A stretch of DNA of 64,000 nt. Origin: an uncultured Desulfospira sp. (GTDB lineage Bacteria > Desulfobacterota > Desulfobacteria > Desulfobacterales > Desulfobacteraceae). The position numbers and the translations under genes are program-made. Location of the stretch: positions 576,001 through 640,000 of the forward strand of contig OY760175.1 in NCBI GenBank assembly GCA_963663165.1, read 5' to 3'. A model generated the notes under the pieces. It was not told the origin of the DNA. It saw only the letters and a list, made by a program, of their open reading frames with translations, and made no database searches. This document shows positions 1,863 through 56,996 of this stretch, piece after piece. Position 1 is the stretch's first letter. Each line of letters opens with the position of its first letter.

Positions 1863-3416
1863 ATGAAATTTTCTGATTCAATAAAATCCGGATATGTCAT
1901 TGTGATTGGTATCTACACGGTGCTGTGTATATTCCTTTATCAGTCTGCAGCAGCTAATCTGCTCAAATGGTGGAAAAAGGATGATTATTCCTATTGCTAT
2001 CTAATACCTTTCATTGTTTTATATCTGCTCTGGGAAAAGAAGAATTCCTTTGCTGTTGAAACTATCCGGCCTCAGTGGCGGGGGATGATTCCATTTTTAT
2101 TGGGCATTGTGTTTTACTGGCTCGGAGAGTTGGGAGGGGAGTTTTATTCACTTTATTTATCCTTCTGGCTGGTCATCTTTGGCCTTTGCGTTATGCTAAT
2201 GGGAATGGATAAAGTCAAAACCATTATCTTCCCTTTATGTATGATCTTTACCATGTTTCCGCTTCCCAATTTCATTAATAACAGGATTACCCTGCAACTG
2301 AAGATCCTTTCAACGAAACTTGGCGTGTTAATGATGCAGGCCTATGGCATGAGCGCGTACCGGGAAGGCAATGTCATAGATCTTGGCTTTACTCAGCTTC
2401 AAGTGGTGGATGCCTGTTCGGGCCTGAGATATCTGTTTCCAATGATTGTGCTAAGTATTCTGGTTGCCTATTTTTATCCGGCCCGGTTTTGGAAACGGCT
2501 TATTGTTGTTGTATCTTCGCTTCCTTTAACTATTCTTAGCAACAGTCTCAGGATTGCATTGACAGGGATTTTATCTGAAAAATTTGGTGCAAAAGTGGTG
2601 GAAGGGTTTTTCCATGATTTTGAAGGTATCCTGATATTTATGTTCACCCTTGGGATATTGCTTTTAGAAATCTGGATTATTAGGCTGATATTCCCTGAGC
2701 CTAAGAAAATTCAAGATGACACCTCGATTGTGGAAACTGAATTAGTTGAGGCTGTTGGAAAAGAAAAAGGGACATCTTTAAAATCGCCTAAGTTTGTTGT
2801 TTCTGTCGTTTTGTTGGTCTTGACAATTGGCTTGTCCCAAGGAATTGAATTCAGGGAAGCTATCCCTATAAGTCAGTCTTTTGATAAGTTTCCAAAGACC
2901 ATCGGGGAATGGAGCGGAGAGCGGCAATTGATGGAGAAAAGGTTCATTGATGAACTGGACCTGAGTGACTATTTCATGGCCGATTACAAAACTGGAGATG
3001 GAAAGGCAGTCAATTTTTATGTGGCCTATTATGAAAGCCAGCGAAAAGGGGAGTCTATCCATTCTCCGGCGACCTGTCTTCGGGGCGGGGGTTGGGATTT
3101 TAAACAGGCCGGGAGCCGGAATATTACCCTGGAAGATGGAACGGTCATGCCGGCAAACCGGGCTTTGATTGAAAAGGCACCGGTTAAGCAATTGTCTTAC
3201 TACTGGTTTCCCTGCCGGGGACGGATTTTGACCAATGCATATCAGATGAAAATTTATAACTTCTGGGATGCCCTGACACGGCAGCGGACGGATGGGGCTT
3301 TGGTCCGGGTGATTACACTGGTGTATGAAGATGAAACGATAGAAGATGCTGAAAAACGGATACAGGGGTTTATTTCTGATGTTCAGCCGGTGTTGCGGAC
3401 TTTTTTGCCGGAGTGA
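1863..3416 (+). CDS. xrtD: Exosortase with C-terminal EpsI domain (XrtD-like)
   Basis: Multi-TM N-terminal half with VVDACSGLRY catalytic Cys motif, NSLRI and FHDF; EpsI-type C-terminus (YYESQR..SIHSPATCL, RTDGALVRV). Subtype D inferred from architecture and neighbours. Confidence 0.8.
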   Translation: MKFSDSIKSGYVIVIGIYTVLCIFLYQSAAANLLKWWKKDDYSYCYLIPFIVLYLLWEKKNSFAVETIRPQWRGMIPFLLGIVFYWLGELGGEFYSLYLSFWLVIFGLCVMLMGMDKVKTIIFPLCMIFTMFPLPNFINNRITLQLKILSTKLGVLMMQAYGMSAYREGNVIDLGFTQLQVVDACSGLRYLFPMIVLSILVAYFYPARFWKRLIVVVSSLPLTILSNSLRIALTGILSEKFGAKVVEGFFHDFEGILIFMFTLGILLLEIWIIRLIFPEPKKIQDDTSIVETELVEAVGKEKGTSLKSPKFVVSVVLLVLTIGLSQGIEFREAIPISQSFDKFPKTIGEWSGERQLMEKRFIDELDLSDYFMADYKTGDGKAVNFYVAYYESQRKGESIHSPATCLRGGGWDFKQAGSRNITLEDGTVMPANRALIEKAPVKQLSYYWFPCRGRILTNAYQMKIYNFWDALTRQRTDGALVRVITLVYEDETIEDAEKRIQGFISDVQPVLRTFLPE

Positions 3417-3525
3417 GAAATGGGATATGAGACTTGGGATTTGGGGTATGGGGTGTTGGGTTTCGCTGCGCTCTACCCAACCTACGGGTTGCGGTTATGT
3501 TACAAACAATATGCGCCATTGATTA

Positions 3526-3554
3526 TTGAACAATGAGGCTGTCATCTGTATATT
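3526..3554 (+). promoter_or_regulatory. Putative sigma70 promoter of first TA pair
   Basis: TTGAAC-17 bp-TATATT followed by AAGGAG RBS before ATG 3576. Confidence 0.5.
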
Positions 3555-3575
3555 CAAATAAAAAAAGGAGATGAC

Positions 3576-3809
3576 ATGGAAGGCATATCAGAAAAAATAT
3601 ATGAACAAGCAATCAATCTTCCCATAGATGAACGGCTTATACTTATAGATAGGTTGCTGATTAGTACCAATTTACCGACTCAAAAAGATATTGATCTGGC
3701 ATGGTCAGCCGAAGTTGAACGCCGTTGCCAAGCACTTGACCGTGGAGAAGCAAGACTTATCTCCGGAGAGGAGGTCTTTGAAAAAATTCGGAAGCGATTT
3801 TCAAAATGA
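3576..3809 (+). CDS. Addiction module antitoxin (TIGR02574-like)
   Basis: 77 aa, LPIDERLILIDRL...AWSAEVERR...GEEVF pattern; ATGA overlap with downstream toxin. Confidence 0.8.
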   Translation: MEGISEKIYEQAINLPIDERLILIDRLLISTNLPTQKDIDLAWSAEVERRCQALDRGEARLISGEEVFEKIRKRFSK

Positions 3810-4093
3810 GATTCAGCTTTCATGAAATTGCTGAAAAAGAATTTATTGACGCCATTGAATATTACGAAGAATGCCAGGCCGGGTTAGGCTTGAGATTCTC
3901 TGAAGAAGTTTTCGCCACAATTGAACGAGTATGTGAGCATCCATATGCTTGGACAGGGATTGATGCAAAAACCAGGCGTTGCCTCACAAACAAGTTCCCG
4001 TACGGAATTCTTTATCGGATAGTTAACAACCACATCAGGATTATGGCGGTAATGCATCTGCATAGAAAGCCGGACTACTGGAAAAGTAGATAA
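3806..4093 (+). CDS. RelE/ParE family toxin
   Basis: 95 aa, AEKEFIDAIEYY...RRCLTNKFPYGILY...IMAVMHLHRKPDYW typical of ParE-like toxins. Confidence 0.85.
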   Translation: MRFSFHEIAEKEFIDAIEYYEECQAGLGLRFSEEVFATIERVCEHPYAWTGIDAKTRRCLTNKFPYGILYRIVNNHIRIMAVMHLHRKPDYWKSR

Positions 4094-4302
4094 AAAGTGG
4101 CGGTGTAAATGAGGTGCTTGAATATATTAAACTGAATCCTGGGAAAAATACACGGCAGATACAGCAGGCGTTAAATATTCCTCGAAGAACTTTGGAGCGG
4201 ATGCCAAAAGAACTGAGGGATAAGAAGTCGATTGAGTTTCGGGGAACCCCTAAAGTTGGTGGTTATTTCTTTGTTATTGAGGTATCAATGTCATTAACTT
4301 AA
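4094..4302 (+). pseudogene. Orphan C-terminal winged-HTH fragment (end of a Fic or ATP-binding-type protein)
   Basis: Reads KSGGVNEVLEYIKLNPG...IPRRTLER..KEL....IEFRGTPKVGGYF, a C-terminal wHTH tail, with no N-terminal domain. Confidence 0.55.
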
Positions 4303-4493
4303 GCATCGAGGATGTTATTTGCAGGTCTCCTTTGAATTTAGAAGATTTAAAAATGCCACCAGGAAATATGTTCGAGGCACTAAAGGGAGACCGAAAAGGG
4401 ACTTATAGTATACGAATCAATGATCAATATAGAGTCTGTTTTAAATGGTCAGAATCGGCCCCTGATTTTGTAGAGATAACCGACTATTATTAA
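4281..4493 (+). pseudogene. higB: HigB (plasmid maintenance killer) toxin, N-terminally damaged; not in ORF track
   Basis: Manual translation LNLEDLKMPPGNMFEALKGDRKGTYSIRINDQYRVCFKW...VEITDYY*; in-frame TGA just before 4281 and the RBS-associated ATG at 4288 is in another frame. Confidence 0.8.
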
Positions 4494-4494
4494 T

Positions 4495-4641
4495 TAGTGT
4501 TTGAACGAAAAGTCACCCATCTGCTGTGTTGCAGGAAAAGTTGCAATCCTCACAACCCCATGGTTGCTCCGGTTGCAACTTTTCCTGCGCCTTGCATCTG
4601 GGCAACTTTTCGTCCAAACACGGGTTTCCGTTCAGGCACTA
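4495..4641 (+). mobile_element. MITE-like element, copy 1 (between higB and higA)
   Basis: Imperfect terminal inverted repeats TAGTGTTTGAACGAAAA / TTTCCGTTCAGGCACTA, TA at both ends, long internal inverted repeat; second copy at 40809-40979. Confidence 0.75.
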
Positions 4642-4655
4642 ATTATGAGGTGAGT

Positions 4656-4973
4656 ATGATTAGAATACCAACACATAGAGAGCCTACTCATCCAGGCGAA
4701 ATGCTAATTGAAGAGTTTTTAACCCCGATGGGAATAATCCAAAAGGAACTGGCAAATTCAATACATGTTCCATATCAAAGGGTTAATGAAATTGTAAAAG
4801 GTAAGAGAGGCATAACGCCGAGCACAGCCCTTCGATTGGCAAAATTTTTTGGAATCTCGGAAGATTTCTGGATGAATTTACAATTAAGATGGGATTTGTA
4901 TCAGGCAAAGTTAACTGAAAGTAATGAACTGAAAAATATTAAAACCTACTGCGTACCCGAGTTACAGTCATAA
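4656..4973 (+). CDS. higA: HigA family antitoxin (XRE-HTH)
   Basis: PTHPGEMLIEEFL...VNEIVKGKRGITPSTALRLAKFFG.SEDFWMNLQ; start ATG 4656 after GAGGTGA (track start 4497 lies inside the MITE). Confidence 0.9.
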   Translation: MIRIPTHREPTHPGEMLIEEFLTPMGIIQKELANSIHVPYQRVNEIVKGKRGITPSTALRLAKFFGISEDFWMNLQLRWDLYQAKLTESNELKNIKTYCVPELQS

Positions 4974-4981
4974 AATAATAT

Positions 4982-5092
4982 GCCCAACTACGCGATATAT
5001 CGATTATTGTTACCAGGAATGGCAATGATTTTAGAGGGTCTGAATTGGATGTTTATTCACCCGAAACGTTTGTTGAGCGTTATGGGAAGTGA
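4982..5092 (+). pseudogene. C-terminal fragment of a PIN-domain protein; not in ORF track
   Basis: Manual translation DISIIVTRNGNDFRGSELDVYSPETFVERYGK* matches the IVTRNxxDF...VxSPxxF PIN tail. Confidence 0.65.
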
Positions 5093-5122
5093 GGTAATGG
5101 GGGCTCTTGATTTAGATTACTT

Positions 5123-5305
5123 GAACGACAACCGACAGACTGAGCTTTGATCCGGGTGATTATCCTGGTGGAATCCACTGATGATGCTGAAAGAAGGGGG
5201 CAGGGGTTTATTTCTGATGTTCAGCCAGTGTTGCGGACTTTTTTGCCGGAGTGAGAAATGGGATATGGGGTGTTGGGTTTCGTTGCGCTCTACCTAACTT
5301 ACGGG
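5123..5305 (+). repeat. Diverged direct copy of the exosortase 3' end plus downstream REP (partner 3277-3488)
   Basis: Translates RQPTD*ALIRVIILV-ESTDDAERRGQGFISDVQPVLRTFLPE* versus RQRTDGALVRVITLVYEDETIEDAEKRIQGFISDVQPVLRTFLPE*. Confidence 0.92.
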
Positions 5306-5429
5306 GTTACACAAAGTGGTCCGACTACATAGAGTGTGGTCATGTTGACAAAATGATCTATATTAATGATATATTAGGTATTGAAGGAATAGAAACCGTA
5401 ATGAACAATTTATTCTTGAGAGCTGATAC

Positions 5430-5705
5430 ATGCCCGAGCGAATAATACATATAAATTCCCCGGTAAAAGAAAATATTCTACTGTCAATAAAAGAAACAAA
5501 GGATGAATTCACAAAAAACGTTCTGTTTTTATCTGCGTTACATTTCTATAGGAATCGGCGTTTATCATTAGGGAAGGCGGCCGAGTTGGCAGGTTACACA
5601 AGAATTGAGTTTATCGAGAGACTCAAACAGGAGAAAGAATATATTTTTGATTATAGTGATGATGAAATGGATGAAATTTTTTCCGACGCAAAAAAGATAA
5701 AATGA
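5430..5705 (+). CDS. UPF0175 family antitoxin-like protein
   Basis: ALHFY....LSLGKAAELAGYTRIEFIERL motif; ATGA overlap with next ORF. Confidence 0.8.
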   Translation: MPERIIHINSPVKENILLSIKETKDEFTKNVLFLSALHFYRNRRLSLGKAAELAGYTRIEFIERLKQEKEYIFDYSDDEMDEIFSDAKKIK

Positions 5706-5896
5706 AGATTGTGTCGAATACCACGCCAATTATCTCTTTAGCCTCAATCGGGCAGCTTAATATATTTTTGTTAATTGCCAAAGAAAAGAATATAATCAAA
5801 TCCACAAAGCCATTGCTTGATGAGATGATTTCAAAGGGTCGATGGTATTCAAAAACGGTCTATCTACAATTTCTTGAACGGGCCGGCGAGATGTAG
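5702..5896 (+). pseudogene. DUF3368-type PIN protein with large internal deletion
   Basis: N-terminus MKIVSNTTPIISLASIGQL joined directly to C-terminal LLIAKEKNII....LLDEM...G.W.S..VY..L..AGE; 64 aa, PIN core absent. Confidence 0.75.
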
Positions 5897-6044
5897 ATTT
5901 ATTCACTTTTTATGGGATTTCCTGTTTTAATATCAAAAAAACCAAGAGCATGAAACATATCTTGCTCGGAGCGGGCTATGTCCGCGAATCGCGGGCATGG
6001 CCCGCTCCTACCCAAATTGGTGTTTATTTTTCTGTTATTGAGAT

Positions 6045-6310
6045 AGATGGGAAGCCGGAATGAGAACCGGGACATGGGACTTGGGGCTTGGATTCAACCC
6101 CTTCGGGATTTCATGGTTTTAAACTACAGAGGGCACGGAAGGTTTGGCTTGCGCTAAACTGCACAGAGGGTGGGGCCGGCGTCGATAGTCCGGCTACAAG
6201 AGGGTGTTCATGATGATAAAGGGAACGGATAGATATCAGGGCATTAAGATGCTTTGTTTACAAAAGTGTCCGACTGGCGCATCTTGGTGTGTATAGGGAG
6301 GTGTATGATG
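6045..6310 (+). repeat. Leader repeat L1 (promoter, RBS and ATG of a TA pair)
   Basis: Aligns along its length with 7079-7310; contains TTTACA-17-CATCTT (6257-6285) and GGGAGGTG RBS. Confidence 0.92.
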
Positions 6311-6661
6311 AAAACAGGCATTGCCGATTCCGTCAAAATAAATGACAAATACGCTCAGATTTTATCAACCTTTGACGTTGATTTGCAATCTGCGGTTGAT
6401 GATGCGCTACAAAAGTATTTGATTGAGCAGATAAGAATAAAAATCGTTACCTTGAAACAAAAAGTCAGCGTTTTTAAAAAAAAATATGGATGTGATTATG
6501 AAACATTCCATAAAAAAATATCAGAGGATGAAGCATATGTGAATCAAGTTGAATGCAACATTGATAAAATGTGGGAAACCGATCTGTTTGAGTGGGAATT
6601 ATGCCATAAAGGGATTAAGGATTGGACAGATCAACTTCAGAATGTTTTGATAATGTTGTAA
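6308..6661 (+). CDS. Hypothetical antitoxin-like protein
   Basis: Start after GGGAGGTG (ATG 6305 or 6308); FKKKYGCDYETF...DLFEWE pattern seen in small TA partner proteins; overlaps next ORF. Confidence 0.55.
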   Translation: MKTGIADSVKINDKYAQILSTFDVDLQSAVDDALQKYLIEQIRIKIVTLKQKVSVFKKKYGCDYETFHKKISEDEAYVNQVECNIDKMWETDLFEWELCHKGIKDWTDQLQNVLIML

Positions 6662-7014
6662 AAGCTGCGCACCAAATTTTTCAAGAACTTGATTATGATC
6701 TGGATGTGACACCTGTCCGGTCAATATTAAATATCAAGTGCCGGTATGGGGCATATACGGTTTTTATTTCAGAATTGTTCAGCGACAATACACGAAAATA
6801 CAGTTATTATGTGTTACATGAAAATTGGGTTGAAGCCGGCTTTGACAATGCGCCGGATCCCAGGGCTATTCGGCTCAAATATGGTAGAATTGGTAAAGAG
6901 CATGCCGGACAGAATATTTCCCATTTACATCTGGAAAATAAAACAAAAATTGAGTTAACTCCTGAAATATCATTTTTTGATTTCGTTGAGTGGATTCAAA
7001 ATAACCTTTCTTAA
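6622..7014 (+). CDS. DUF6516/TumE-like putative toxin
   Basis: RKYSYYV.....AGFDNAPD......SHLH resembles the YxY...DNA...HxH signature; family call tentative. Confidence 0.5.
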   Translation: MDRSTSECFDNVVKAAHQIFQELDYDLDVTPVRSILNIKCRYGAYTVFISELFSDNTRKYSYYVLHENWVEAGFDNAPDPRAIRLKYGRIGKEHAGQNISHLHLENKTKIELTPEISFFDFVEWIQNNLS

Positions 7015-7078
7015 GATAGCTGTTCAATCTAAAGTTCTTGGGCTTGCAAAGGCAGAGACTGCTGACCACCGCAGAGCC

Positions 7079-7310
7079 AGATGGGAAGCCGGAATGAGAA
7101 CCGGAACATGGGACTTGGGCTTGGATTCAATCCCCTTTGGTATTTCATGGTTTTAAACCACAGAGGACACCGAGGTTTGGCTGTCGCCAAACTGCACAGG
7201 AGGGTGTTCATGATGATAAAGGGAAGGGACAGATATCAGGGCATTAAGATGCTTTGTTGACAAAAGTGCTTGAGTGGCGCATCTTGGTGTGTATGGGGAG
7301 GTGTATTATG
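7079..7310 (+). repeat. Leader repeat L2 (promoter, RBS and ATG of vapBC)
   Basis: Copy of 6045-6310 lacking a ~34-bp segment; TTGACA-17-CATCTT at 7257-7285. Confidence 0.92.
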
Positions 7311-7508
7311 AGAACCAATGTAGTATTAGATGACCGGTTGATTCAGGAGGCCCTGGCCTTAAGCGGATTAAAAACTAAAAAAGATATTATTTCAATGGCA
7401 CTGCAGGAATTTGTTGATTCCCGGAAAAGGAAAAACTTGCTGGAACTTTCGGGGAAAATTGAATTCCGCCATGATTATGATTATAAAGCCCTCCGACAGG
7501 ACAAATGA
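7308..7508 (+). CDS. vapB: VapB family antitoxin
   Basis: MRTNVVLDDRLIQEALALSGLKTKKDII..AL.EFV motif; ATGA overlap with PIN toxin. Confidence 0.85.
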   Translation: MRTNVVLDDRLIQEALALSGLKTKKDIISMALQEFVDSRKRKNLLELSGKIEFRHDYDYKALRQDK

Positions 7509-7891
7509 TACTTGTCGATACGTCAGTTCTGATCGATTTCTTTAAAGGTGTTTCAAACCCCTCAACCGATAGCTTAAGAAGGATTATTGAACAGCAGATT
7601 CCCTTTGGGATTACCTCTGTCATTTATCAGGAAATTTTGCAGGGGGCCAAAGATCGAAAAGAATATAATCTCTTGAATGAATACCTGGAATGCCAAAAAT
7701 TTTTTCATCCTTTAGACCTGATAGGCTCTTATGCGCAAGCCGCTATAATATATTTTTCCTGCAGAAAAAAAGGAATCACCATTAGAAGCACAATTGACTG
7801 CCTGATTGCTCAAGTTGCTATTGAGCATGGCCCGCTCCTACCCAAAATCAAAATCGGTTTCAAGATTCGTTACAAATTGTGCATAGGATAA
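7505..7891 (+). pseudogene. vapC: VapC PIN toxin, C-terminus replaced at a REP junction
   Basis: MILVDTSVLIDFF...EILQG...STIDCLIAQVAIEH, then homology stops at 7825-7830 where REP sequence begins; the final HxDxDF-type acidic motif is missing. Confidence 0.75.
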
Positions 7892-7918
7892 GGGAGATTG
7901 GTCCGGCGTTGCTGAACC

Positions 7919-8323
7919 TTATTCCCAGTCTTCAAGAATGAGGCCGGATATCCGGATGAATTCCCGGGTATTATGGGTAACGAGGACCGCATCATGGGCG
8001 CGGGCAATTGCGGCAATAAGCATATCATTGGGGCCGATCAGGTTGCCCTGGGCTGTCAGATCGGCTCTGATAAGACCGTATTCATCCGCACATTGATCAT
8101 CAAAGGGCAGGCTTTGCAAAGGGGCGAAGAACAATCTTAAGGCTTGAAGGTTGGCATCTACCCGGTTGCTGTTTCTTGCACCGAAAAGCAGCTCAGCTTT
8201 AACAATACTACAGACCGCAATTTCGGAAGGGGAGCTGGTGCGAAAATGGTGTTCAACAGATTGAGATGTGCCGTTAAGAAAATTGATGCAGACGTTGGTA
8301 TCCAGAAGAAACATTTTATTCAA
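7919..8323 (-). CDS. vapC: VapC PIN toxin (intact)
   Basis: LLDTNVCI...KAELLFGA...IGPNDMLIAAIA...LVTHNTREF.RI.GL.LEDW. Confidence 0.9.
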   Translation of the reverse strand: MNKMFLLDTNVCINFLNGTSQSVEHHFRTSSPSEIAVCSIVKAELLFGARNSNRVDANLQALRLFFAPLQSLPFDDQCADEYGLIRADLTAQGNLIGPNDMLIAAIARAHDAVLVTHNTREFIRISGLILEDWE

Positions 8324-8540
8324 ACCCTGTTCTTTGTTCTATATCTAATTGATCCGGTCGGACGAGGGGCTCTCCCTGCCATGATCCGGCCAGGTCAAAA
8401 TAATTTTCCGGCCAGTCATTGATGGTCTCTTTTTTTACGAGATAGGCCAAATATTTTGAGGTGGACAATCCGGCCTCCTTGGCTTTTTGTTTAAACAGGA
8501 TCGCCAGATTGTCCGGTATGTAACAGTGTAATTGCGCCAT
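8316..8540 (-). CDS. Antitoxin (ribbon-helix-helix-like)
   Basis: MAQLHCYIPD...KAKEAGLSTSKYL; GGAGGA RBS before ATG at 8540; overlaps vapC start. Confidence 0.75.
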   Translation of the reverse strand: MAQLHCYIPDNLAILFKQKAKEAGLSTSKYLAYLVKKETINDWPENYFDLAGSWQGEPLVRPDQLDIEQRTGFE

Positions 8541-8762
8541 GTATTCCTCCAAATATATTTATTGTATGTGTTTTTTATGGTAATGAAATGTTCAGGGTGT
8601 GTCAAGTCTGGTGAGCATGCTTTTTGTGGCCGTGGTCTGTTAGCGAATTTTGGCTTATTTAATTTGTCGTTCAGGCCGGTGGATTGGCCGTTAGATGGTG
8701 GGCAGCGCTTCGCTTTTGCCCACCCTACGGCGCCAACAATAACTATAAAATATAGATCATAG

Positions 8763-10403
8763 ATGAATCTGTTTACTGTTTTTATCCTGTCGTTGTTTTT
8801 GACCATCGCCCTGGTGCCGGTGTTTAAGCGCCTGGCATTCAGAATGAATATTGTGGATGTGCCCAATGCCCGAAAGGTCCATGCGGTTCCCATGCCCAAG
8901 ACCGGGGGGATATCCATGGCCCTGGGGGCCTTTATCCCCATGCTGCTCTGGCTTCCCCGGGACCCTTTTGTCAGTTCTCTGTTTATCGGGGCCGGCATTA
9001 TTGTTGTTTTCGGGGTGATTGATGATATCAAAACCCTGGGAGCCATACAGAAATTTGTCCCCCAGATTGCCGCCACCGTGATTGTGGTTGTTTTCGGGGG
9101 GGTGAGGTTTACCTGTTTCGGGGATCTGCTGCCCGCATCCTGTACGCTGCCGGCATATCTTTCCATTCCCTTTACCGTGTTTGCCATTCTCGGGGTAACC
9201 AATGCCATTAATTTGGCGGACGGACTGGACGGCCTTGCCGGCGGGATATCCATGCTCAGCTATATTCTGATTGTTTTTCTGGCATTGAACTGCGGCAATC
9301 ATAGTGTGGCCATTATTGCCGTTGCCATGGCAGGCGGGATTGCCGGGTTTTTAAGGTTCAATACCCATCCGGCGGTGTTGTTTATGGGCGATGCCGGCAG
9401 CCAGCTGCTCGGATTCGTTTTGGCCGTGCTGGTGGTGGCCCTGACCCAGGCCAATACGCCGTATGCCAAGATTCTGGGCCTGCCGCTGATCGGGTTTCCG
9501 ATTCTGGACACCCTGACGGTGATGTCCGAACGGGTCATAAAGGGAAAATCTCCCTTTGCAGCCGACAAAAACCATTTTCATCACCGGCTGCTCCGGTTTG
9601 GTTTTTTTCATACCGAAGCCGTACTGCTGATCTATATCACCCAGGCCCTGTTTATGATCATGGCGTTGATCTTCCGGTTTTATTCGGACTGGTTTTCCTT
9701 TTTGGGCTTTGTGTCCCTGTCCCTGTTGATTCTCCTGGTTTTCTTTATAGGGGGCAGGGTGAAGTGGAAATTTCGGAGGGAGGGCACTTTTGACTCCGTG
9801 GTGAAACGGCGGCTGAAAACCCTGAAAGACCAGAAGCTGTTTATCCGGACTTTTTTTGGGGGGATACGGTTTGGGTTTCCCCTGGTATTCGGATGCCAGG
9901 CCCTGGTGCCGGTTAAAATTTCCATGCTGGTTTCTGCAATTGCCGCCGGGTTAATGGCTGCCACCGGTATTACCTATTTTTTTGACTGGTCAAGATACCG
10001 GCCCGTTTTATTGCGATTTTCGGTTTATATTTTGGCGCCGCTGACCTTGTACGCCGCTGAAAACGACGCCGGGATCTGGATGACCGAATTTTGGTTAACC
10101 GTGAATAATCTCGGGTTTATTGCCTTGATTTTATTTGTGATCATGACCATGAACCTGACACGGCGGCGGCAGGGATTCAAGGTAACGCCCATGGATATCC
10201 TGGTGTTTATCGTTATCCTGGTATTTCCCAATTTGCCGTCTGTTCATTTTGAAGCCTACCATGCCGGTATGGTGTTGGCCAAGGTGCTGGTGATTTTGTA
10301 CAGCTATGATGTGTTGATGGGAGAGCTTCGCCATGATACAGAACGGATGGTTTTGCCCATGATGATCGCTTTAGGGGCGTTTGTGGTTCGGGCATTGGTG
10401 TAA
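8763..10403 (+). CDS. MraY/WecA family undecaprenyl-phosphate sugar-1-phosphate transferase with extra C-terminal TM region
   Basis: DVPNARKVH..PMP.TGG, GVIDD, NAINLADGLDGLA, LFMGDAGS, DKNHFHH motifs. Confidence 0.9.
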   Translation: MNLFTVFILSLFLTIALVPVFKRLAFRMNIVDVPNARKVHAVPMPKTGGISMALGAFIPMLLWLPRDPFVSSLFIGAGIIVVFGVIDDIKTLGAIQKFVPQIAATVIVVVFGGVRFTCFGDLLPASCTLPAYLSIPFTVFAILGVTNAINLADGLDGLAGGISMLSYILIVFLALNCGNHSVAIIAVAMAGGIAGFLRFNTHPAVLFMGDAGSQLLGFVLAVLVVALTQANTPYAKILGLPLIGFPILDTLTVMSERVIKGKSPFAADKNHFHHRLLRFGFFHTEAVLLIYITQALFMIMALIFRFYSDWFSFLGFVSLSLLILLVFFIGGRVKWKFRREGTFDSVVKRRLKTLKDQKLFIRTFFGGIRFGFPLVFGCQALVPVKISMLVSAIAAGLMAATGITYFFDWSRYRPVLLRFSVYILAPLTLYAAENDAGIWMTEFWLTVNNLGFIALILFVIMTMNLTRRRQGFKVTPMDILVFIVILVFPNLPSVHFEAYHAGMVLAKVLVILYSYDVLMGELRHDTERMVLPMMIALGAFVVRALV

Positions 10404-20410: not shown

Positions 20411-20485
20411 ATAAGATAATGGGGTCAAACCTTGATTATGGCCTTTTCTAAAGGCCATAATCAAGGTTTGACCCCATTATCTTAT
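20411..20485. repeat. Perfect palindrome, 36-bp arms and 3-nt loop (copy 1)
   Basis: ATAAGATAATGGGGTCAAACCTTGATTATGGCCTTT-TCT-reverse complement. Confidence 0.95.
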
Positions 20486-20617: not shown

Positions 20618-21256
20618 ATGGATGAGAAGACCGCATTAGAGGTGTTGGGGCTGACCAGGCCGGTGGGGGCAGATGAGCTGAAAAAGGTTTTCCGGGCCAT
20701 GGCCAAACGGTATCATCCTGATTTTTCGGTTGCCTCAGGCCTTGATGTTGAAAAAGCCGATGCCCGGATGAAGCAGATTAATATGGCATTCGGGGTTCTG
20801 GCTTGCCGGTGTCCGGCCCAGCCTGTCAGCAAACCTGAAGCCTCAGGCGGCCCGGAGGGGAAAAGGCCGGGAAAGTCGTTTTTTTCAAAAATGGTTAAAA
20901 ATTTCAAACAACGGGCCAAGATCAAGCCGGTCCAACAAGACAGATTTTCTCCAAACAAGCCGCCTGTCAGAGAGCCAAAGGATTTCAGAACAAATAAGGG
21001 CCGCCGGATTAAAGGGTTTGATCAGGTGCTGGTGCAAAGTTTCCGGCAGGCAGGCATTTCAGGCCGCAACGAACCTGCCGGCCCAAGCCGTATCCGGGTT
21101 AAGTCATGTGGTTCCCCCTATGAGAATTACATGAAGCATATGGCGCTGAAAGATAGGGTTGAAACAAGAAAAAGAATATTGAAGCAGGATCTGCCGGACA
21201 GGATTGAAAAAATATCACCGGTCAGGAAAGTCTCGCCAATGAGTAATGGTGAGTAA
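20618..21256 (+). CDS. J-domain-containing protein
   Basis: ALEVLGL...LKKVFRAMAKRYHPD...MKQINMAF; basic low-complexity C-terminus. Confidence 0.8.
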   Translation: MDEKTALEVLGLTRPVGADELKKVFRAMAKRYHPDFSVASGLDVEKADARMKQINMAFGVLACRCPAQPVSKPEASGGPEGKRPGKSFFSKMVKNFKQRAKIKPVQQDRFSPNKPPVREPKDFRTNKGRRIKGFDQVLVQSFRQAGISGRNEPAGPSRIRVKSCGSPYENYMKHMALKDRVETRKRILKQDLPDRIEKISPVRKVSPMSNGE

Positions 21257-21321
21257 TGGGGTCAAACCTTGATTATGGTCTTTTTTAAAGACCATAATCA
21301 AGGTTTGACCCCATTACTCAC
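21249..21321. repeat. Perfect palindrome, 35-bp arms and 3-nt loop (copy 2)
   Basis: GTGAGTAATGGGGTCAAACCTTGATTATGGTCTTT-TTT-reverse complement; contains the stop codons of both convergent flanking genes. Confidence 0.95.
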
Positions 21322-48004: not shown

Positions 48005-48585
48005 TTTGTTCCTAATAAAATTTAAGTGTTGCTCAAAACCCCTGAAAAACGGTCCATGCCGGCATGGCGGAACGGTCTTTTTTAAACATATTCAGTTTAA
48101 AGTTTTATTAGCATGTTGCGGTTTTATTGGCCAGAGGGGCATCAGATTCATAATTTCGGGGTTGAGAAGCCGATGTCTCAATTCCAAGCCCACAGACGCT
48201 TTGCTGGCATCAATCCTCCGCCGTATATTTTGTGAATTTTCCTTCACAATCAACAGGTTGTTACGATAGGCGAAAAGGGTTTTTGTCTTTTGACGATAAA
48301 GGGAAATCCGGTTTTGGCAGTATTACCGCCATGCCAAAGATCGTCTGCGATGGTTTCAGCCCGTTTGATTTCCCAATGGAGAAATACAACACAGATTGTA
48401 ACTATTCAGCTAATGCTGAAAACTAAGCAGAACCAGGGTCCGTAACTGTTCATCAGTGCTTCATATAAACGGCCATGGGCCACAAGCCCACAACGAATAA
48501 TGAAACTGAAGATACCAGCAACGGTAGCCTATAAATTGGGCACCGCAGGTGCTTCGCCCTCTTGTCTCTTGTCTCCAGTTTCTTA

Positions 48586-48680
48586 TAAAACGGCCACGGG
48601 CCGCCCTGGTTATCCAACCAAGCACCGCCCACAACGAAAAATGAAAGTCTTCTCAAGATGTTAGTGAGACTTTCATATAA
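48586..48680 (+). repeat. Three-hairpin ~93-bp element, full copy abutting tRNA-Sec 3' end (partial copy at 48466-48505)
   Basis: AACGGCCACGGGCCGCCCTGGTTATCCAACCAAGCACCGCCCACAACGAAAAATGAAAGTCTTCTCAAGATGTTAGTGAGACTTTCATATAA. Confidence 0.9.
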
Positions 48681-48686
48681 AAAAAA

Positions 48687-48784
48687 TGGCGGAAGCACAT
48701 GGGAATCGAACCCACCCGGGACGGTTCTAACGCCCCACATTGGATTTGAAGTCCAAGGGCCCCACCAGTGAGCCGCGTGCTTCC
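48687..48784 (-). tRNA. selC: tRNA-Sec (UCA)
   Basis: Reverse complement GGAAGCAC...TTGGACTTCAAATCCAA...long variable arm...GGGTTCGATTCCCATGTGCTTCCGCCA; UCA anticodon, extended acceptor stem, G discriminator. Confidence 0.95.
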
Positions 48785-49880: not shown

Positions 49881-49915
49881 ACTTTAGTATAAAGTAGAAT
49901 TTTGATTTTACTCAA

Positions 49916-50005
49916 AAACGGCCCCGGGCTGTCTTGGTTATCCAACCAAGAACCGCCCACAACAAATAATGAAAGTTTTCTCAGGATGTTAGTGAGAATT
50001 CATAC
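49916..50005 (+). repeat. Three-hairpin ~93-bp element, full copy
   Basis: Aligns with 48586-48680 along its length. Confidence 0.88.
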
Positions 50006-50023
50006 AAAATGAGGCTGTATGAA

Positions 50024-54034: not shown

Positions 54035-54149
54035 TACCAAACAGGGCAGGCCTCAAGAAATACGCCCCAAAAGGCCTGCCGGCAGCGATAGTTGAAAGCC
54101 ATTAACCTTTCAGCTAAAAGCTAACTGCTAATTGCTAACAGCGAAGCTT

Positions 54150-54242
54150 TTATATGAAAGTCTCACTAACAAGCTGAAAAGACTTTCATTTTTCGTTGTG
54201 GGCGGTGCTTGGTTGGATAACCAAGGCGGCCCGTGGCCGTTA
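54150..54242 (-). repeat. Three-hairpin ~93-bp element, full copy (inverted)
   Basis: Reverse complement matches 48586-48680; preceded by NNGCTAA heptamer repeats at 54111-54145. Confidence 0.9.
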
Positions 54243-54266
54243 TATTGAATCAGGAGTGCAAATACC

Positions 54267-56885
54267 ATGACAGGCAACGAAGCCCGGAAAATTTTTCTCG
54301 ATTATTTTAAAAAACACGGCCATCAGCATGTCCGATCTTCTTCCCTTGTTCCCCAGGACGACCCTACGCTTTTGTTTGTTAATGCGGGCATGGTTCAATT
54401 CAAGCGGGTGTTCACCGGTGATGAAAAAAGAGATTACGCCACGGCCGTGACATCCCAAAAATGCGTCAGGGCCGGCGGCAAACACAATGATCTTGAAAAT
54501 GTCGGGTACACGGCCCGCCACCATACCTTTTTTGAAATGCTGGGAAATTTTTCCTTTGGCCATTATTTTAAAGATAAGGCCATTGAATTTGGCTGGGATT
54601 TGCTCACCAACGGGTATGGGTTTGATCCGGAAAAACTGTATGTATCCGTATTTCTAGATGATGATGAAGCCTATGGCATATGGCGGGACAACATCGGCGT
54701 GCCCGAAGACCGAATCGCCCGGTTAGGGGAAGAGGACAACTTCTGGGCCATGGGGGATACCGGTCCCTGCGGCCCGTGCAGCGAGATTCACATTGACCGG
54801 GGAGAAGCCTTTGGCTGCGGCCGCAAAGACTGTGCTGTCGGGTGCGACTGCGACCGGTGGCTTGAGCTTTGGAACCTGGTGTTCATGCAGTTTGAACGGG
54901 ATGAACAGGGCAACATGACCCCCCTGCCCAAACCCAGTATTGATACAGGCATGGGCCTTGAACGGATCATTTCTGTTCTCCAGGATGTGCCCACCAACTT
55001 TGATACAGACCTGTTTGTCCCCATTATGGACAAGGTCGGGGAACTTTCCGGCAAAAAGAGAAATCAGTCCCGGGAAGTGGAAGTGGCCATGAAGGTCATT
55101 GCCGACCACTCCAGGGCCTCGGCCTTTCTGATCAGTGACGGGGTGCTGCCCTCCAATGAAGGGCGGGGATACGTGCTTCGCCGCATCATGCGCCGGGCCA
55201 TCCGGTACGGCCGAAGCATCGGCCTTGTAAAACCCTTTCTCCATGAAACCGTTCAAACCGTATTTTCCATTATGGATGAGGCCTATCCGGAGCTTAAAGA
55301 ATCCGCCGCCTTTATTTTGAACGTGGTGAAAAACGAAGAAGAAAAATTTCTTGAAACCCTTGAAACGGGAATGAAACTGCTGGAATCCACCCTGGAAGAC
55401 CTTCATGCCCAGAACCAGAAGGTGATTCCCGGAAAGGTCATCTTCAAGCTTTATGATACCTATGGGTTCCCGGTGGACATTATTACCGACCATGTCAAGG
55501 AAATGGACATGGACCTGGACATTGAGGGATTTGACCGGGCCATGGCCGAACAAAAGGCAAGATCCAAATCCAAAAAGAAATTTGAAGGGGTAGGTGATGT
55601 TTATAAACCCCTGACCTCATCCGGTGTGAAAACCCGTTTTAAAGGGTATGATGCCCTTGAGATTGAATCGGAACTGCTCATGGCGGTAAAGGATGACCAG
55701 GAGGCCAATCCGGCCAATTCGGGAGATGAGGTTGAACTGGTCACCAGAGAAACCGTATTTTATGCCGAATCCGGGGGCCAGGTTGGTGACCGGGGCGTTT
55801 TTGAAAACAGCGCCTGCACCATTAACATCACAGACACGGTGTCGGACCCCTCCGGGCTTTATATTCATAAGGGCAAGGTGATTTCAGGATCATGCCGGAA
55901 AGGGGATGTCTTTACCCTTAAGGTGGATGCCCGGCGCCGCCAGGCAACGGCCATTAACCATACCGCCACCCATATTCTTCATTCGGCCTTGCGAAACGTC
56001 TTAGGAGATCATGTTAAACAGTCCGGCTCCCTGGTCACACCGGACCGGTTCAGGTTTGACTTTACCCACTTTAGCGGTGTTTCGGCTGATGAACTGGCCG
56101 CCATTGAGACTGAGGTCAACCAAAGAATCCGGGAAAACCATGTGGTGTCCACCCGGGAAATGAAAATGGATGATGCGGTCAAATCAGGGGCCACCGCCCT
56201 GTTCGAAGAAAAATACGGGGATGTGGTCAGGGTGGTTTCCCAGGGGGAATTCAGTCAGGAACTTTGCGGCGGCACCCATACCAGGGCCTCGGGAGATATC
56301 GGGCTGTTCCGGATTTTGTCTGAAGGGGCCGTGGCCTCCGGGGTCCGGCGGATTGAGGCCGTGACCGGCCAGGCAGCCCTTGACACGGTCCATGCAGACC
56401 GCAATACCATTGAAACCGCTGCCGGCCTGCTCAAGGGAGCCAAGGATGAGGTGGTGACCAAGGTGGAAACCCTGATCAGCGAAAAAAAGGCCCTTGAAAA
56501 AGAGCTTGAATCTATTAAGGCAAAACTGGCCTCAAAATCCGTTGAAAACATTGAAGACAATATCCGGGAAATCAACGGCATTAAAGTGCTTTCCAAACGG
56601 GTTGAAATTGAGAACCCCTCCCAGCTTCGGGACCTTGCCGATAAATTCAAGGCAAAGCTTGGCTCGGGCGTTCTGCTGCTTGGGGCCCAGTCCAATGAAA
56701 AGGCCCTGTTGATTGCCATGGTCACCGATGACCTGACCCGGCAGTACAAGGCCGGAGATATCGTTAAAAAGGCGGCCGGGATTGTAGGCGGCGGCGGCGG
56801 CGGACGGCCTGACATGGCCCAGGCAGGGGGCTCAAAACCCGAGAACCTGGATAAGGCTTTGGAATCCGTGTTTGAGCTTTCATAA
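54267..56885 (+). CDS. alaS: Alanine--tRNA ligase
   Basis: DPTLLF.NAGM.QFK, RHHTFFEMLGNFSFG.YFK, HTATH, ELCGGTH, GGGGRPDMAQAGG. Confidence 0.98.
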   Translation: MTGNEARKIFLDYFKKHGHQHVRSSSLVPQDDPTLLFVNAGMVQFKRVFTGDEKRDYATAVTSQKCVRAGGKHNDLENVGYTARHHTFFEMLGNFSFGHYFKDKAIEFGWDLLTNGYGFDPEKLYVSVFLDDDEAYGIWRDNIGVPEDRIARLGEEDNFWAMGDTGPCGPCSEIHIDRGEAFGCGRKDCAVGCDCDRWLELWNLVFMQFERDEQGNMTPLPKPSIDTGMGLERIISVLQDVPTNFDTDLFVPIMDKVGELSGKKRNQSREVEVAMKVIADHSRASAFLISDGVLPSNEGRGYVLRRIMRRAIRYGRSIGLVKPFLHETVQTVFSIMDEAYPELKESAAFILNVVKNEEEKFLETLETGMKLLESTLEDLHAQNQKVIPGKVIFKLYDTYGFPVDIITDHVKEMDMDLDIEGFDRAMAEQKARSKSKKKFEGVGDVYKPLTSSGVKTRFKGYDALEIESELLMAVKDDQEANPANSGDEVELVTRETVFYAESGGQVGDRGVFENSACTINITDTVSDPSGLYIHKGKVISGSCRKGDVFTLKVDARRRQATAINHTATHILHSALRNVLGDHVKQSGSLVTPDRFRFDFTHFSGVSADELAAIETEVNQRIRENHVVSTREMKMDDAVKSGATALFEEKYGDVVRVVSQGEFSQELCGGTHTRASGDIGLFRILSEGAVASGVRRIEAVTGQAALDTVHADRNTIETAAGLLKGAKDEVVTKVETLISEKKALEKELESIKAKLASKSVENIEDNIREINGIKVLSKRVEIENPSQLRDLADKFKAKLGSGVLLLGAQSNEKALLIAMVTDDLTRQYKAGDIVKKAAGIVGGGGGGRPDMAQAGGSKPENLDKALESVFELS

Positions 56886-56977
56886 AACCGTCACGGACGG
56901 CCTGGATTATCCAACCAAGAACCGTCCACAACGAATAATGAAAGTCTTATCAGGATGTTAATGAGACTTTCATATAA
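56883..56977 (+). repeat. Three-hairpin ~93-bp element, full copy starting at alaS stop
   Basis: Aligns with 48586-48680; first hairpin shows compensatory changes. Confidence 0.88.
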
Positions 56978-56996
56978 AAAATAAGGGACCCGCGCC

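Follow-up and report, generated by a model that had tools for sequence, protein, structure and literature searches.

How did two unrelated operons of toxin–antitoxin (TA) type, lying side by side in a Desulfospira genome, come to share the same leader up to the start codon? The question is raised by the window analysed here, a stretch of 64,000 nucleotides (G000:C1:576001-640000) from a genome, G000, that consists of a single contig of 6.74 Mb. A preliminary description of this DNA had proposed a portable expression platform, with coding cargo being swapped at the start codon. We arrive at a different answer: probably, a TumA/TumE-like gene pair inserted once at the start codon of a resident vapB gene, duplicating the vapB spacer in the process, and the leader is not a reusable platform.

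Results

The shared leader is a duplicated intergenic spacer

The elements of the locus, in window positions, are:

6045..6315, plus strand: duplicated spacer copy 1, the flank upstream of the inserted pair
6045..6091, plus strand: Part A of the leader, the last codons and stop of an AlbA_2/winged-helix gene, followed by a heptamer tract
6092..6170, plus strand: Part B, a dispersed repeat of ~79 bp found genome-wide
6200..6256, plus strand: distal Part C, a locus-specific spacer with two genome copies and a partial third homologue at 5319-5352
6257..6310, plus strand: proximal Part C, copy 1, with vapB-type −35 (TTTACA), −10, GTGTAT boxes (putative operator), ribosome-binding site (RBS) and ATG, preceding the tumA-like gene
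6308..6661, plus strand: inserted gene whose 117-aa product, a TumA-like putative antitoxin, is mostly helical and belongs to no Pfam family
6622..7014, plus strand: inserted gene for a TumE(DUF6516)-like putative toxin, 130 aa, PF20126 at E=0.0078
7015..7078, plus strand: end of the insert together with the right junction, which shares ~8 nt of microhomology with the gene tail
7079..7315, plus strand: duplicated spacer copy 2, which restores the vapB promoter
7257..7310, plus strand: proximal Part C, copy 2, with the native vapB promoter, putative operator, RBS and ATG
7308..7508, plus strand: vapB (PF09957, by Pfam)
7505..7891, plus strand: vapC (PIN), its C-terminus replaced from ~7825, where a REP-like repeat begins

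The two spacer copies (6045-6315 and 7079-7315) are 79.8% identical over 272 columns, one 33-bp indel included, and 91% identical across their final 120 nt. The 33-bp piece is absent from copy 2 only, being present in the three other copies of G000 and its congener G001. The promoter elements are located as originally described, with TTTACA at 6257 and TTGACA at 7257, a 17-nt spacer, CATCTT at 6280 and 7280, the RBS region GGGAGGTG at 6296 and 7296, and the ATG at 6308 and 7308. The exact fusion at the start codon, likewise noted before, is borne out by the identity between the tumA and the vapB copy, which drops from 28 of 30 positions just 5′ of the ATG to 11 of 30 just 3′ of it. The duplication is not an assembly slip, because contigs from run X1, possibly the source sample, span both copies (5979-7180 and 7153-9000) with zero differences; an assembly artefact as its origin is thereby rejected. 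A 6114-7150 joint in run X6 was not taken for an empty allele, one side being 21 letters long and within the dispersed repeat.

The preliminary description treated the repeat as a single leader of ~250 bp; the repeat is real, but it is a composite of Parts A, B and C and not one unit. Since it runs from the stop codon of one gene to the start codon of the next, it constitutes a whole intergenic spacer. The stop of Part A, TGA, lies at 6061-6063 in copy 1 and at 7095-7097 in copy 2, and the complete tail of the AlbA_2/winged-helix gene is found in G001 (L007 13131-13185). An assignment of Part A to an exosortase tail was discarded, as the resemblance is weak and heptamer-driven and the winged-helix tail fits better. 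Part B has 34 matches in the genome at E<1e-3; 27 of these extend over at least 70 nt. The repeat is thus made of resident target sequence, with a dispersed 79-bp middle and a final 110 bp, Part C (6200-6310), that represents the vapB leader and is found exactly twice in G000; among 61 related genomes, Part C is confined to G000 and G001, plus two short weak matches in G057. Another congener, G002, has neither the leader nor a WecA-like orthologue. A 28-nt leader pattern had no match in metagenome contigs and a motif none in viral contigs, while a 19-nt pattern recovered, from genome contigs, the congener and one unrelated archaeal match. A structured RNA leader was rejected, since the leader folds no better than its shuffles (z −0.16) and has no match in Rfam; neither spacer copy contains a terminator-like site. 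As a consensus promoter scan listed neither leader promoter, our promoter call is based on conservation instead.

The promoter belongs to vapB

Searching with the leader plus vapB DNA yielded matches in 13 of 161 family genomes. We inspected 11 non-congener loci, leaving out one 22-nt match (L077). At nine of them, from four other genera, TTGACA-17-(-10)-TGTGTAT-GGAGGTG-ATG precedes vapB in register, which confirms the earlier promoter call; of the two exceptions, one is 5′-truncated and the other spaced differently. When eight loci were aligned to the window copies, invariant columns occurred across the −35-to-ATG stretch and none 5′ of the −35 box. A search with the motif only gave 13 matches in 10 of the 161 family genomes (control: 0), of which 11 precede VapB and two precede the TumA-like gene discussed here, in G000 and G001. 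Because the motif was built from vapB leaders, the informative result is the absence of a third cargo. A looser motif, applied to 401 genomes of the order, produced 12 matches, seven of them new: four precede VapB, one precedes a protein with a weak VapB-profile match (E 0.0012), and two precede genes without a match, one of which resembles another small antitoxin by eye.

TGTGTA-type boxes are present at most 60 nt from the start of 22 of 29 vapB homologues, compared to 2 of 23 tumA homologues and a background rate of 2.2% among 5030 genomic starts. Among 44 tumA-homologue loci examined, 38 have an intact 5′ end, and the motif is missing from all of these; four further tumA loci in the family match the window in coding DNA only. 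These comparisons show the proximal leader to be a vapB leader. Ribbon-helix-helix type II antitoxins bind short repeated boxes over their own promoter; the conserved GTGTAT boxes of the vapB leader are suggestive of an operator.

The pair behind copy 1 is TumE–TumA-like, and tumA aligns from the ATG

The nearest tumA with genomic context, an orthologue in G426, is 65% identical at the protein level (the relative P0002 is 76% identical), and its alignment to the window begins at 6308, the ATG, with agreement at 9 of 30 positions before and 21 of 30 after it. This shows the traceable ancestry of tumA to start at the ATG. Taken together, a conserved vapB-type leader and a tumA orthologue that aligns only from the ATG argue that the TumE/TumA-like pair was inserted once at the vapB start codon.

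The TumE-like protein (6622-7014) scores 16.6 bits against PF20126, below the cut-off of 23.4; this family is weakly matched by 8 of 14 homologues from other loci, none of which exceeds the cut-off. In the Atlas, the window's protein best matches TumE clusters (0.91-0.92), the recognition score being low. A tumE-like gene is also present at 36 of 47 tumA-homologue loci, some of these loci being short contigs. By layout and weak family matches, the inserted pair resembles TumE-TumA, of which it is a putative member. For the model of the TumA-like protein, Foldseek returned no PDB match at E<=0.001. The second copy of the spacer leads into vapBC (PF09957 E 2e-16, PIN E 1.7e-9), with vapB overlapping the downstream PIN gene. 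The cargoes are thus those named before, a no-Pfam 117-aa protein with a TumE(DUF6516)-like partner after copy 1 and a VapB–PIN pair after copy 2, and the two antitoxins, for which BLASTP gives no alignment and hhalign a probability of ~6%, are, by these comparisons, not close homologues, as had been stated. In G000, vapC has lost its C-terminal 25 residues at the REP-like repeat (7825-7891), such that the toxin is probably inactive; in G001, vapC is intact.

At the left junction, ~7 of 9 bases are common to the two start contexts. The insert measures ~0.77 kb, and no integrase or transposase was detected among 15 proteins scanned. Mediation by a REP-transposase (Y1) was considered, with no positive evidence: all 14 Y1 matches in the genome lie outside the window.

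At three other loci (L044, L081 and L083), the DNA 5′ of the tumA homologue looks by eye like an integron attC site, and the TumA-like TA family may therefore also travel as a promoterless gene cassette.

The locus is part of a reshuffled TA array

Both operons belong to a larger array, whose further features are:

1863-3416: exosortase gene, upstream border of the array
3417..8762, no strand assigned: polymorphic TA array between the exosortase gene and a WecA/TagO-like gene
5125..5305, plus strand: duplicated exosortase 3′ end plus REP-like hairpin, a copy of 3278-3488
5319..5352, plus strand: partial third spacer homologue, joined to the UPF0175/DUF3368 operon's own promoter
8763-10403: WecA/TagO-like glycosyltransferase family 4 gene, downstream border of the array

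The exosortase and WecA-like genes are adjacent in G004, G018, G011 and G027, i.e. at four of eight loci examined; three loci have other neighbours, and in G003 the slot (L103 569-5331) contains no TA modules but a row of three AAA-ATPase/PD-(D/E)XK genes in tandem. One exosortase-WecA locus ended at a contig end. In G001, the array has a different order and contains stubs of the window-type exosortase tail. Because its own upstream exosortase is only 33% identical to that of G000, this points to an exchange of the upstream polysaccharide locus. Exosortase 3′-end stubs recur through the array (window 3278-3488 and 5125-5305; L007 8414-8534 and 9337-9557), and the parDE/higBA genes show the same layout with duplicated flanks (3278-3488, 5125-5305).

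A possible remnant of the leader before the UPF0175 pair had been suggested. It does exist as a partial homologue, but its best extent is 5319-5352, aligning to 6188-6220 with a score of 34 that was reached by none of 3000 random windows, and it ends at the −35 box of the UPF0175 operon's own promoter, not at an ATG.

In G001, both spacer copies precede the same two genes, and window positions 5870-6182 match DNA downstream of vapBC. The vapB leader copy of G000 agrees with the tumA copy of G001 at 107 of 108 positions, compared to 99 of 108 with its own neighbour, and the tumA leader copy of G000 carries several private changes, −35 box included. These changes in the −35/spacer region (6257-6274) resemble 5307-5326, perhaps by conversion from there or by chance.

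Several members of the array seem decayed, judging from a winged-helix gene remnant fused to a 5′-truncated higB (4114-4493) and a short DUF3368 gene, apparently internally deleted (5702-5896). Repeats abound: a ~155 bp palindromic repeat between higB and higA (4490-4645) gives 199 BLAST hits in the genome, perfect palindromes also occur at 20411-20485 and 21249-21321, and a ~100 bp family is found at 48585-48689, 49913-50017, 54148-54245 and 56882-56986. A second polymorphic-looking TA array (L139, G000:C1:552000-561500) lies ~20 kb before the window begins; it includes several local duplications and a gene pair, 559627-560303, that looks like the TumA/TumE type by eye.

TA modules between direct repeats elsewhere in the genome

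Of 446 local direct repeats genome-wide, 66 are low-copy ones, located in 43 loci. Ten of these loci contain one or more of 64 TA toxin genes (one ParE hit, a duplicate of a YoeB hit, was dropped), compared to a mean of 1.4 and a maximum of 7 in 5000 null draws; this uniform null exaggerates the enrichment, given that accessory DNA is where TA genes as well as duplications are concentrated. The tumAE-vapBC locus is not among the ten, and at least one of them is a duplicated toxin gene and not a bracketed insert. For seven of the TA loci, we checked the corresponding positions in G001 and G002: two are empty in G001, two are filled and three are uninformative. The same layout as in the window, a TA module between direct repeats, thus exists with an empty site at two other TA loci:

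G000:C1:3941685-3943462 (L151): PIN-toxin TA module between 442-bp duplications, empty in G001
G000:C1:3147648-3148815 (L152): PIN-toxin TA module between 81-bp duplications, empty in G001

At both positions, G001 has a single repeat copy (~432-442 bp and 81 bp, respectively) and no TA genes. The 81-bp empty site is a neat 5′/3′ mosaic of both copies (4 sites), whereas the 442-bp site is not, so that integration of a circle is not established; an empty site can also arise by loss between the repeats. For the tumAE-vapBC locus, we found no empty site; the distal leader occurs only in G000 and G001, both of which are filled.

At a further locus (L140, G000:C1:1527621-1530306), three ~240 bp copies separate an ATPase gene, a mazEF-like pair and a vapBC-like pair. 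Its 3.9-kb stretch is 100% identical in G001, compared to 90-96% for other loci, suggesting a recent exchange.

Discussion

In the scenario that we infer for the order of events, the molecular route, the activity of the promoter, the role of the operator, cross-repression and the TA activity of the insert alike, the ancestral locus would have read AlbA/winged-helix gene, spacer, vapBC. A tumA-tumE-like pair of ~0.77 kb, without promoter or RBS of its own, would then have entered at the vapB start codon in a recombinase-free event that duplicated the entire spacer, giving spacer-tumAE-spacer-vapBC, with short microhomologies marking the left junction (at the start-codon context) as well as the right one (at the gene tail). 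Such a join would be favoured by selection, because the antitoxin is expressed and vapBC kept intact. The insertion would have been single, before or across the split from G001, and recombination among the repeats would afterwards have reshuffled and partly homogenised the copies. As a predicted outcome, a vapB-type promoter would drive tumAE, and VapB or VapBC would act on it as a repressor in trans.

A two-step history would start from a tandem duplication of spacer and vapBC, with the first vapBC coding region subsequently replaced by tumAE and the final arrangement unchanged, or from a transfer, in the manner of a minimal mobile element, out of a relative in which tumAE had already replaced vapBC at this slot. 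The strong reshuffling of the interval between G000 and G001, seen in the displaced match of 5870-6182, and the ATPase-like genes of the G003 slot, as an instance of other cargo, would speak for such a history. However, the DNA separating tumE from copy 2 contains no vapBC remnant, our searches recovered no relative carrying spacer-tumAE by itself, and the one-step layout has precedents with empty sites in the same genome. We therefore regard replacement as improbable.

The portable platform initially proposed, a promoter/RBS cassette exchanging its cargo repeatedly at the start codon, would account for the junction exactly at the ATG, for the recombination between leader copies and for a partial third homologue in front of another TA operon. 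Yet across the 161 family genomes there are only two cargoes and one event: the motif is essentially tied to one gene family, an outcome that the preliminary description had itself named as refuting the platform, with 11 of 13 matches preceding vapB and the other two going back to one shared event. The distal leader is limited to its two genomic copies, a −35 box is the joining point of the third homologue, and no junction at an ATG is seen in the remaining members of the array or at the further TA loci between repeats that we inspected. The leader folds no better than its shuffles and is without an Rfam match. In a scan of 5030 crude Shine–Dalgarno (SD)-bearing starts, 226 non-homologous pairs had in-register similarity upstream, 33 of them at ≥80% in the last 40 nt, but none besides the tumA/vapB pair shared a low-copy leader up to the ATG of unrelated genes, a result that applies to starts with the chosen SD patterns. 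The platform is thus very unlikely. Throughout the genome, many other REP-like and heptamer repeats extend up to ribosome-binding sites.

That the two antitoxins are distant ribbon-helix-helix relatives retaining a common ancestral promoter, for which a collinear hhalign match (57 columns, 19% identity, P ~0.006) could be cited, is hardly credible and largely refuted by the absence of the motif at tumA-homologue loci and the counts on either side of the ATG, BLASTP giving no alignment and hhalign a probability of ~6%; leaders that are still 92-99% identical cannot date from such an old split.

The proposed insertion at the vapB start codon can be compared with published systems. Furuta, Abe and Kobayashi (2010; PMC2853133) describe insertion with long target duplication, defined by repeats of >30 bp, an insert of <20 kb and the absence of any other mobile element. 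According to these authors, such repeats frequently extend across the start or the stop of translation, and operon-like structures can be targets as well. It was described for restriction-modification genes, the survey criterion being R and M genes as cargo, and examples given there, with 44-47 of 46-47 bp identical, are less diverged than the tumAE-flanking repeats. In both cases, a small addiction-type module lies between long direct repeats of resident DNA, without integrase or transposase. The repeat of ~235-270 bp that flanks tumAE is likewise above 30 bp, includes one stop and one start codon and does not disrupt the target gene, and single-copy empty sites exist in a relative for two other G000 loci. 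In contrast, the tumAE cargo is a TA-like pair in place of restriction-modification genes, making it a variant outside that class; it has no promoter or RBS of its own and uses those of another TA operon; and its own locus is without a known empty site. A further reference on this kind of insertion is reportedly Nobusato et al. 2000. Direct repeats of 152 bp also enclose a TA module in Microcystis (PMC7935541).

Other systems resemble the locus in part. The PeSL cassettes of T4-type phages (Arbiol et al. 2010; PMC2839356), many per genome, with terminator stem-loops and repeated shuffling, likewise put small genes of unrelated kinds behind copies of a sigma-70-like promoter, with repeats usable as recombination points, whereas the tumAE/vapBC leader has two copies and two cargoes, no significant structure or terminator, and the promoter of one gene family. 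Minimal mobile elements (Saunders and Snyder 2002; definition via PMC8627216) have variable content between conserved flanking genes, as seen between the exosortase and WecA-like genes, and no dedicated mobility gene. Here, however, cargo piles up in tandem with duplicated flanks and is not replaced, and the upstream exosortase itself differs between G000 and G001 (33% identity). Besides homologous recombination in the flanks, further illegitimate joins are suggested by the stubs of gene tails and by the microhomology at the junctions. In the TumE-TumA superfamily, with its diverse unrelated partners (Durairaj et al. 2023; PMC10584680), the two-gene unit also has the DUF6516-like gene 3′ of a small partner; the inserted pair would be a divergent subgroup, below the Pfam cut-off, with a putative toxin. 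Transcriptional cross-regulation between TA systems by way of similar operators has been reviewed (PMC10305079), for example CopA on pemIK or Axe-Txe with YefM-YoeB. Similarly, the prediction for VapB is that, because an operator is shared, it would repress the promoter of a TA pair not its own; what differs is that the putative sharing stems from a traceable promoter duplication, and that the repression is a prediction.

The general kind of insertion is therefore known, and the new element is a TA cargo taking over the promoter of another TA. No published description of TA promoter capture by such an insertion was found in the accessible literature, the coverage of which mostly excludes subscription journals; a supplementary figure of Furuta et al. 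(2010) shows insertion into an operon-like structure and may be relevant to this novelty. A broader, joint reading would hold that insertion with long target duplication, free of any recombinase, is the main way in which TA modules spread in the genus, that insertion at an antitoxin ATG is recurrent, selected and wires unrelated TAs into one regulon, that the newcomer is subordinate to the resident VapB and derepressed upon VapB loss, and that the shared leader then allows more cargo to be traded between relatives at the ATG; as a package, we consider this unlikely.

While the tumAE/vapBC case reveals no new machinery, it is a clean natural fusion of a promoter and a gene, both parents of which can be traced to the start codon. 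It suggests that a target-duplication route known for restriction-modification genes also delivers chromosomal TA modules in sulfate-reducing bacteria, and it offers a testable route by which one TA system could come under the control of another. The promoter takeover predicts cross-repression of tumAE by VapB; if this is true, the newcomer may answer to its neighbour's antitoxin.
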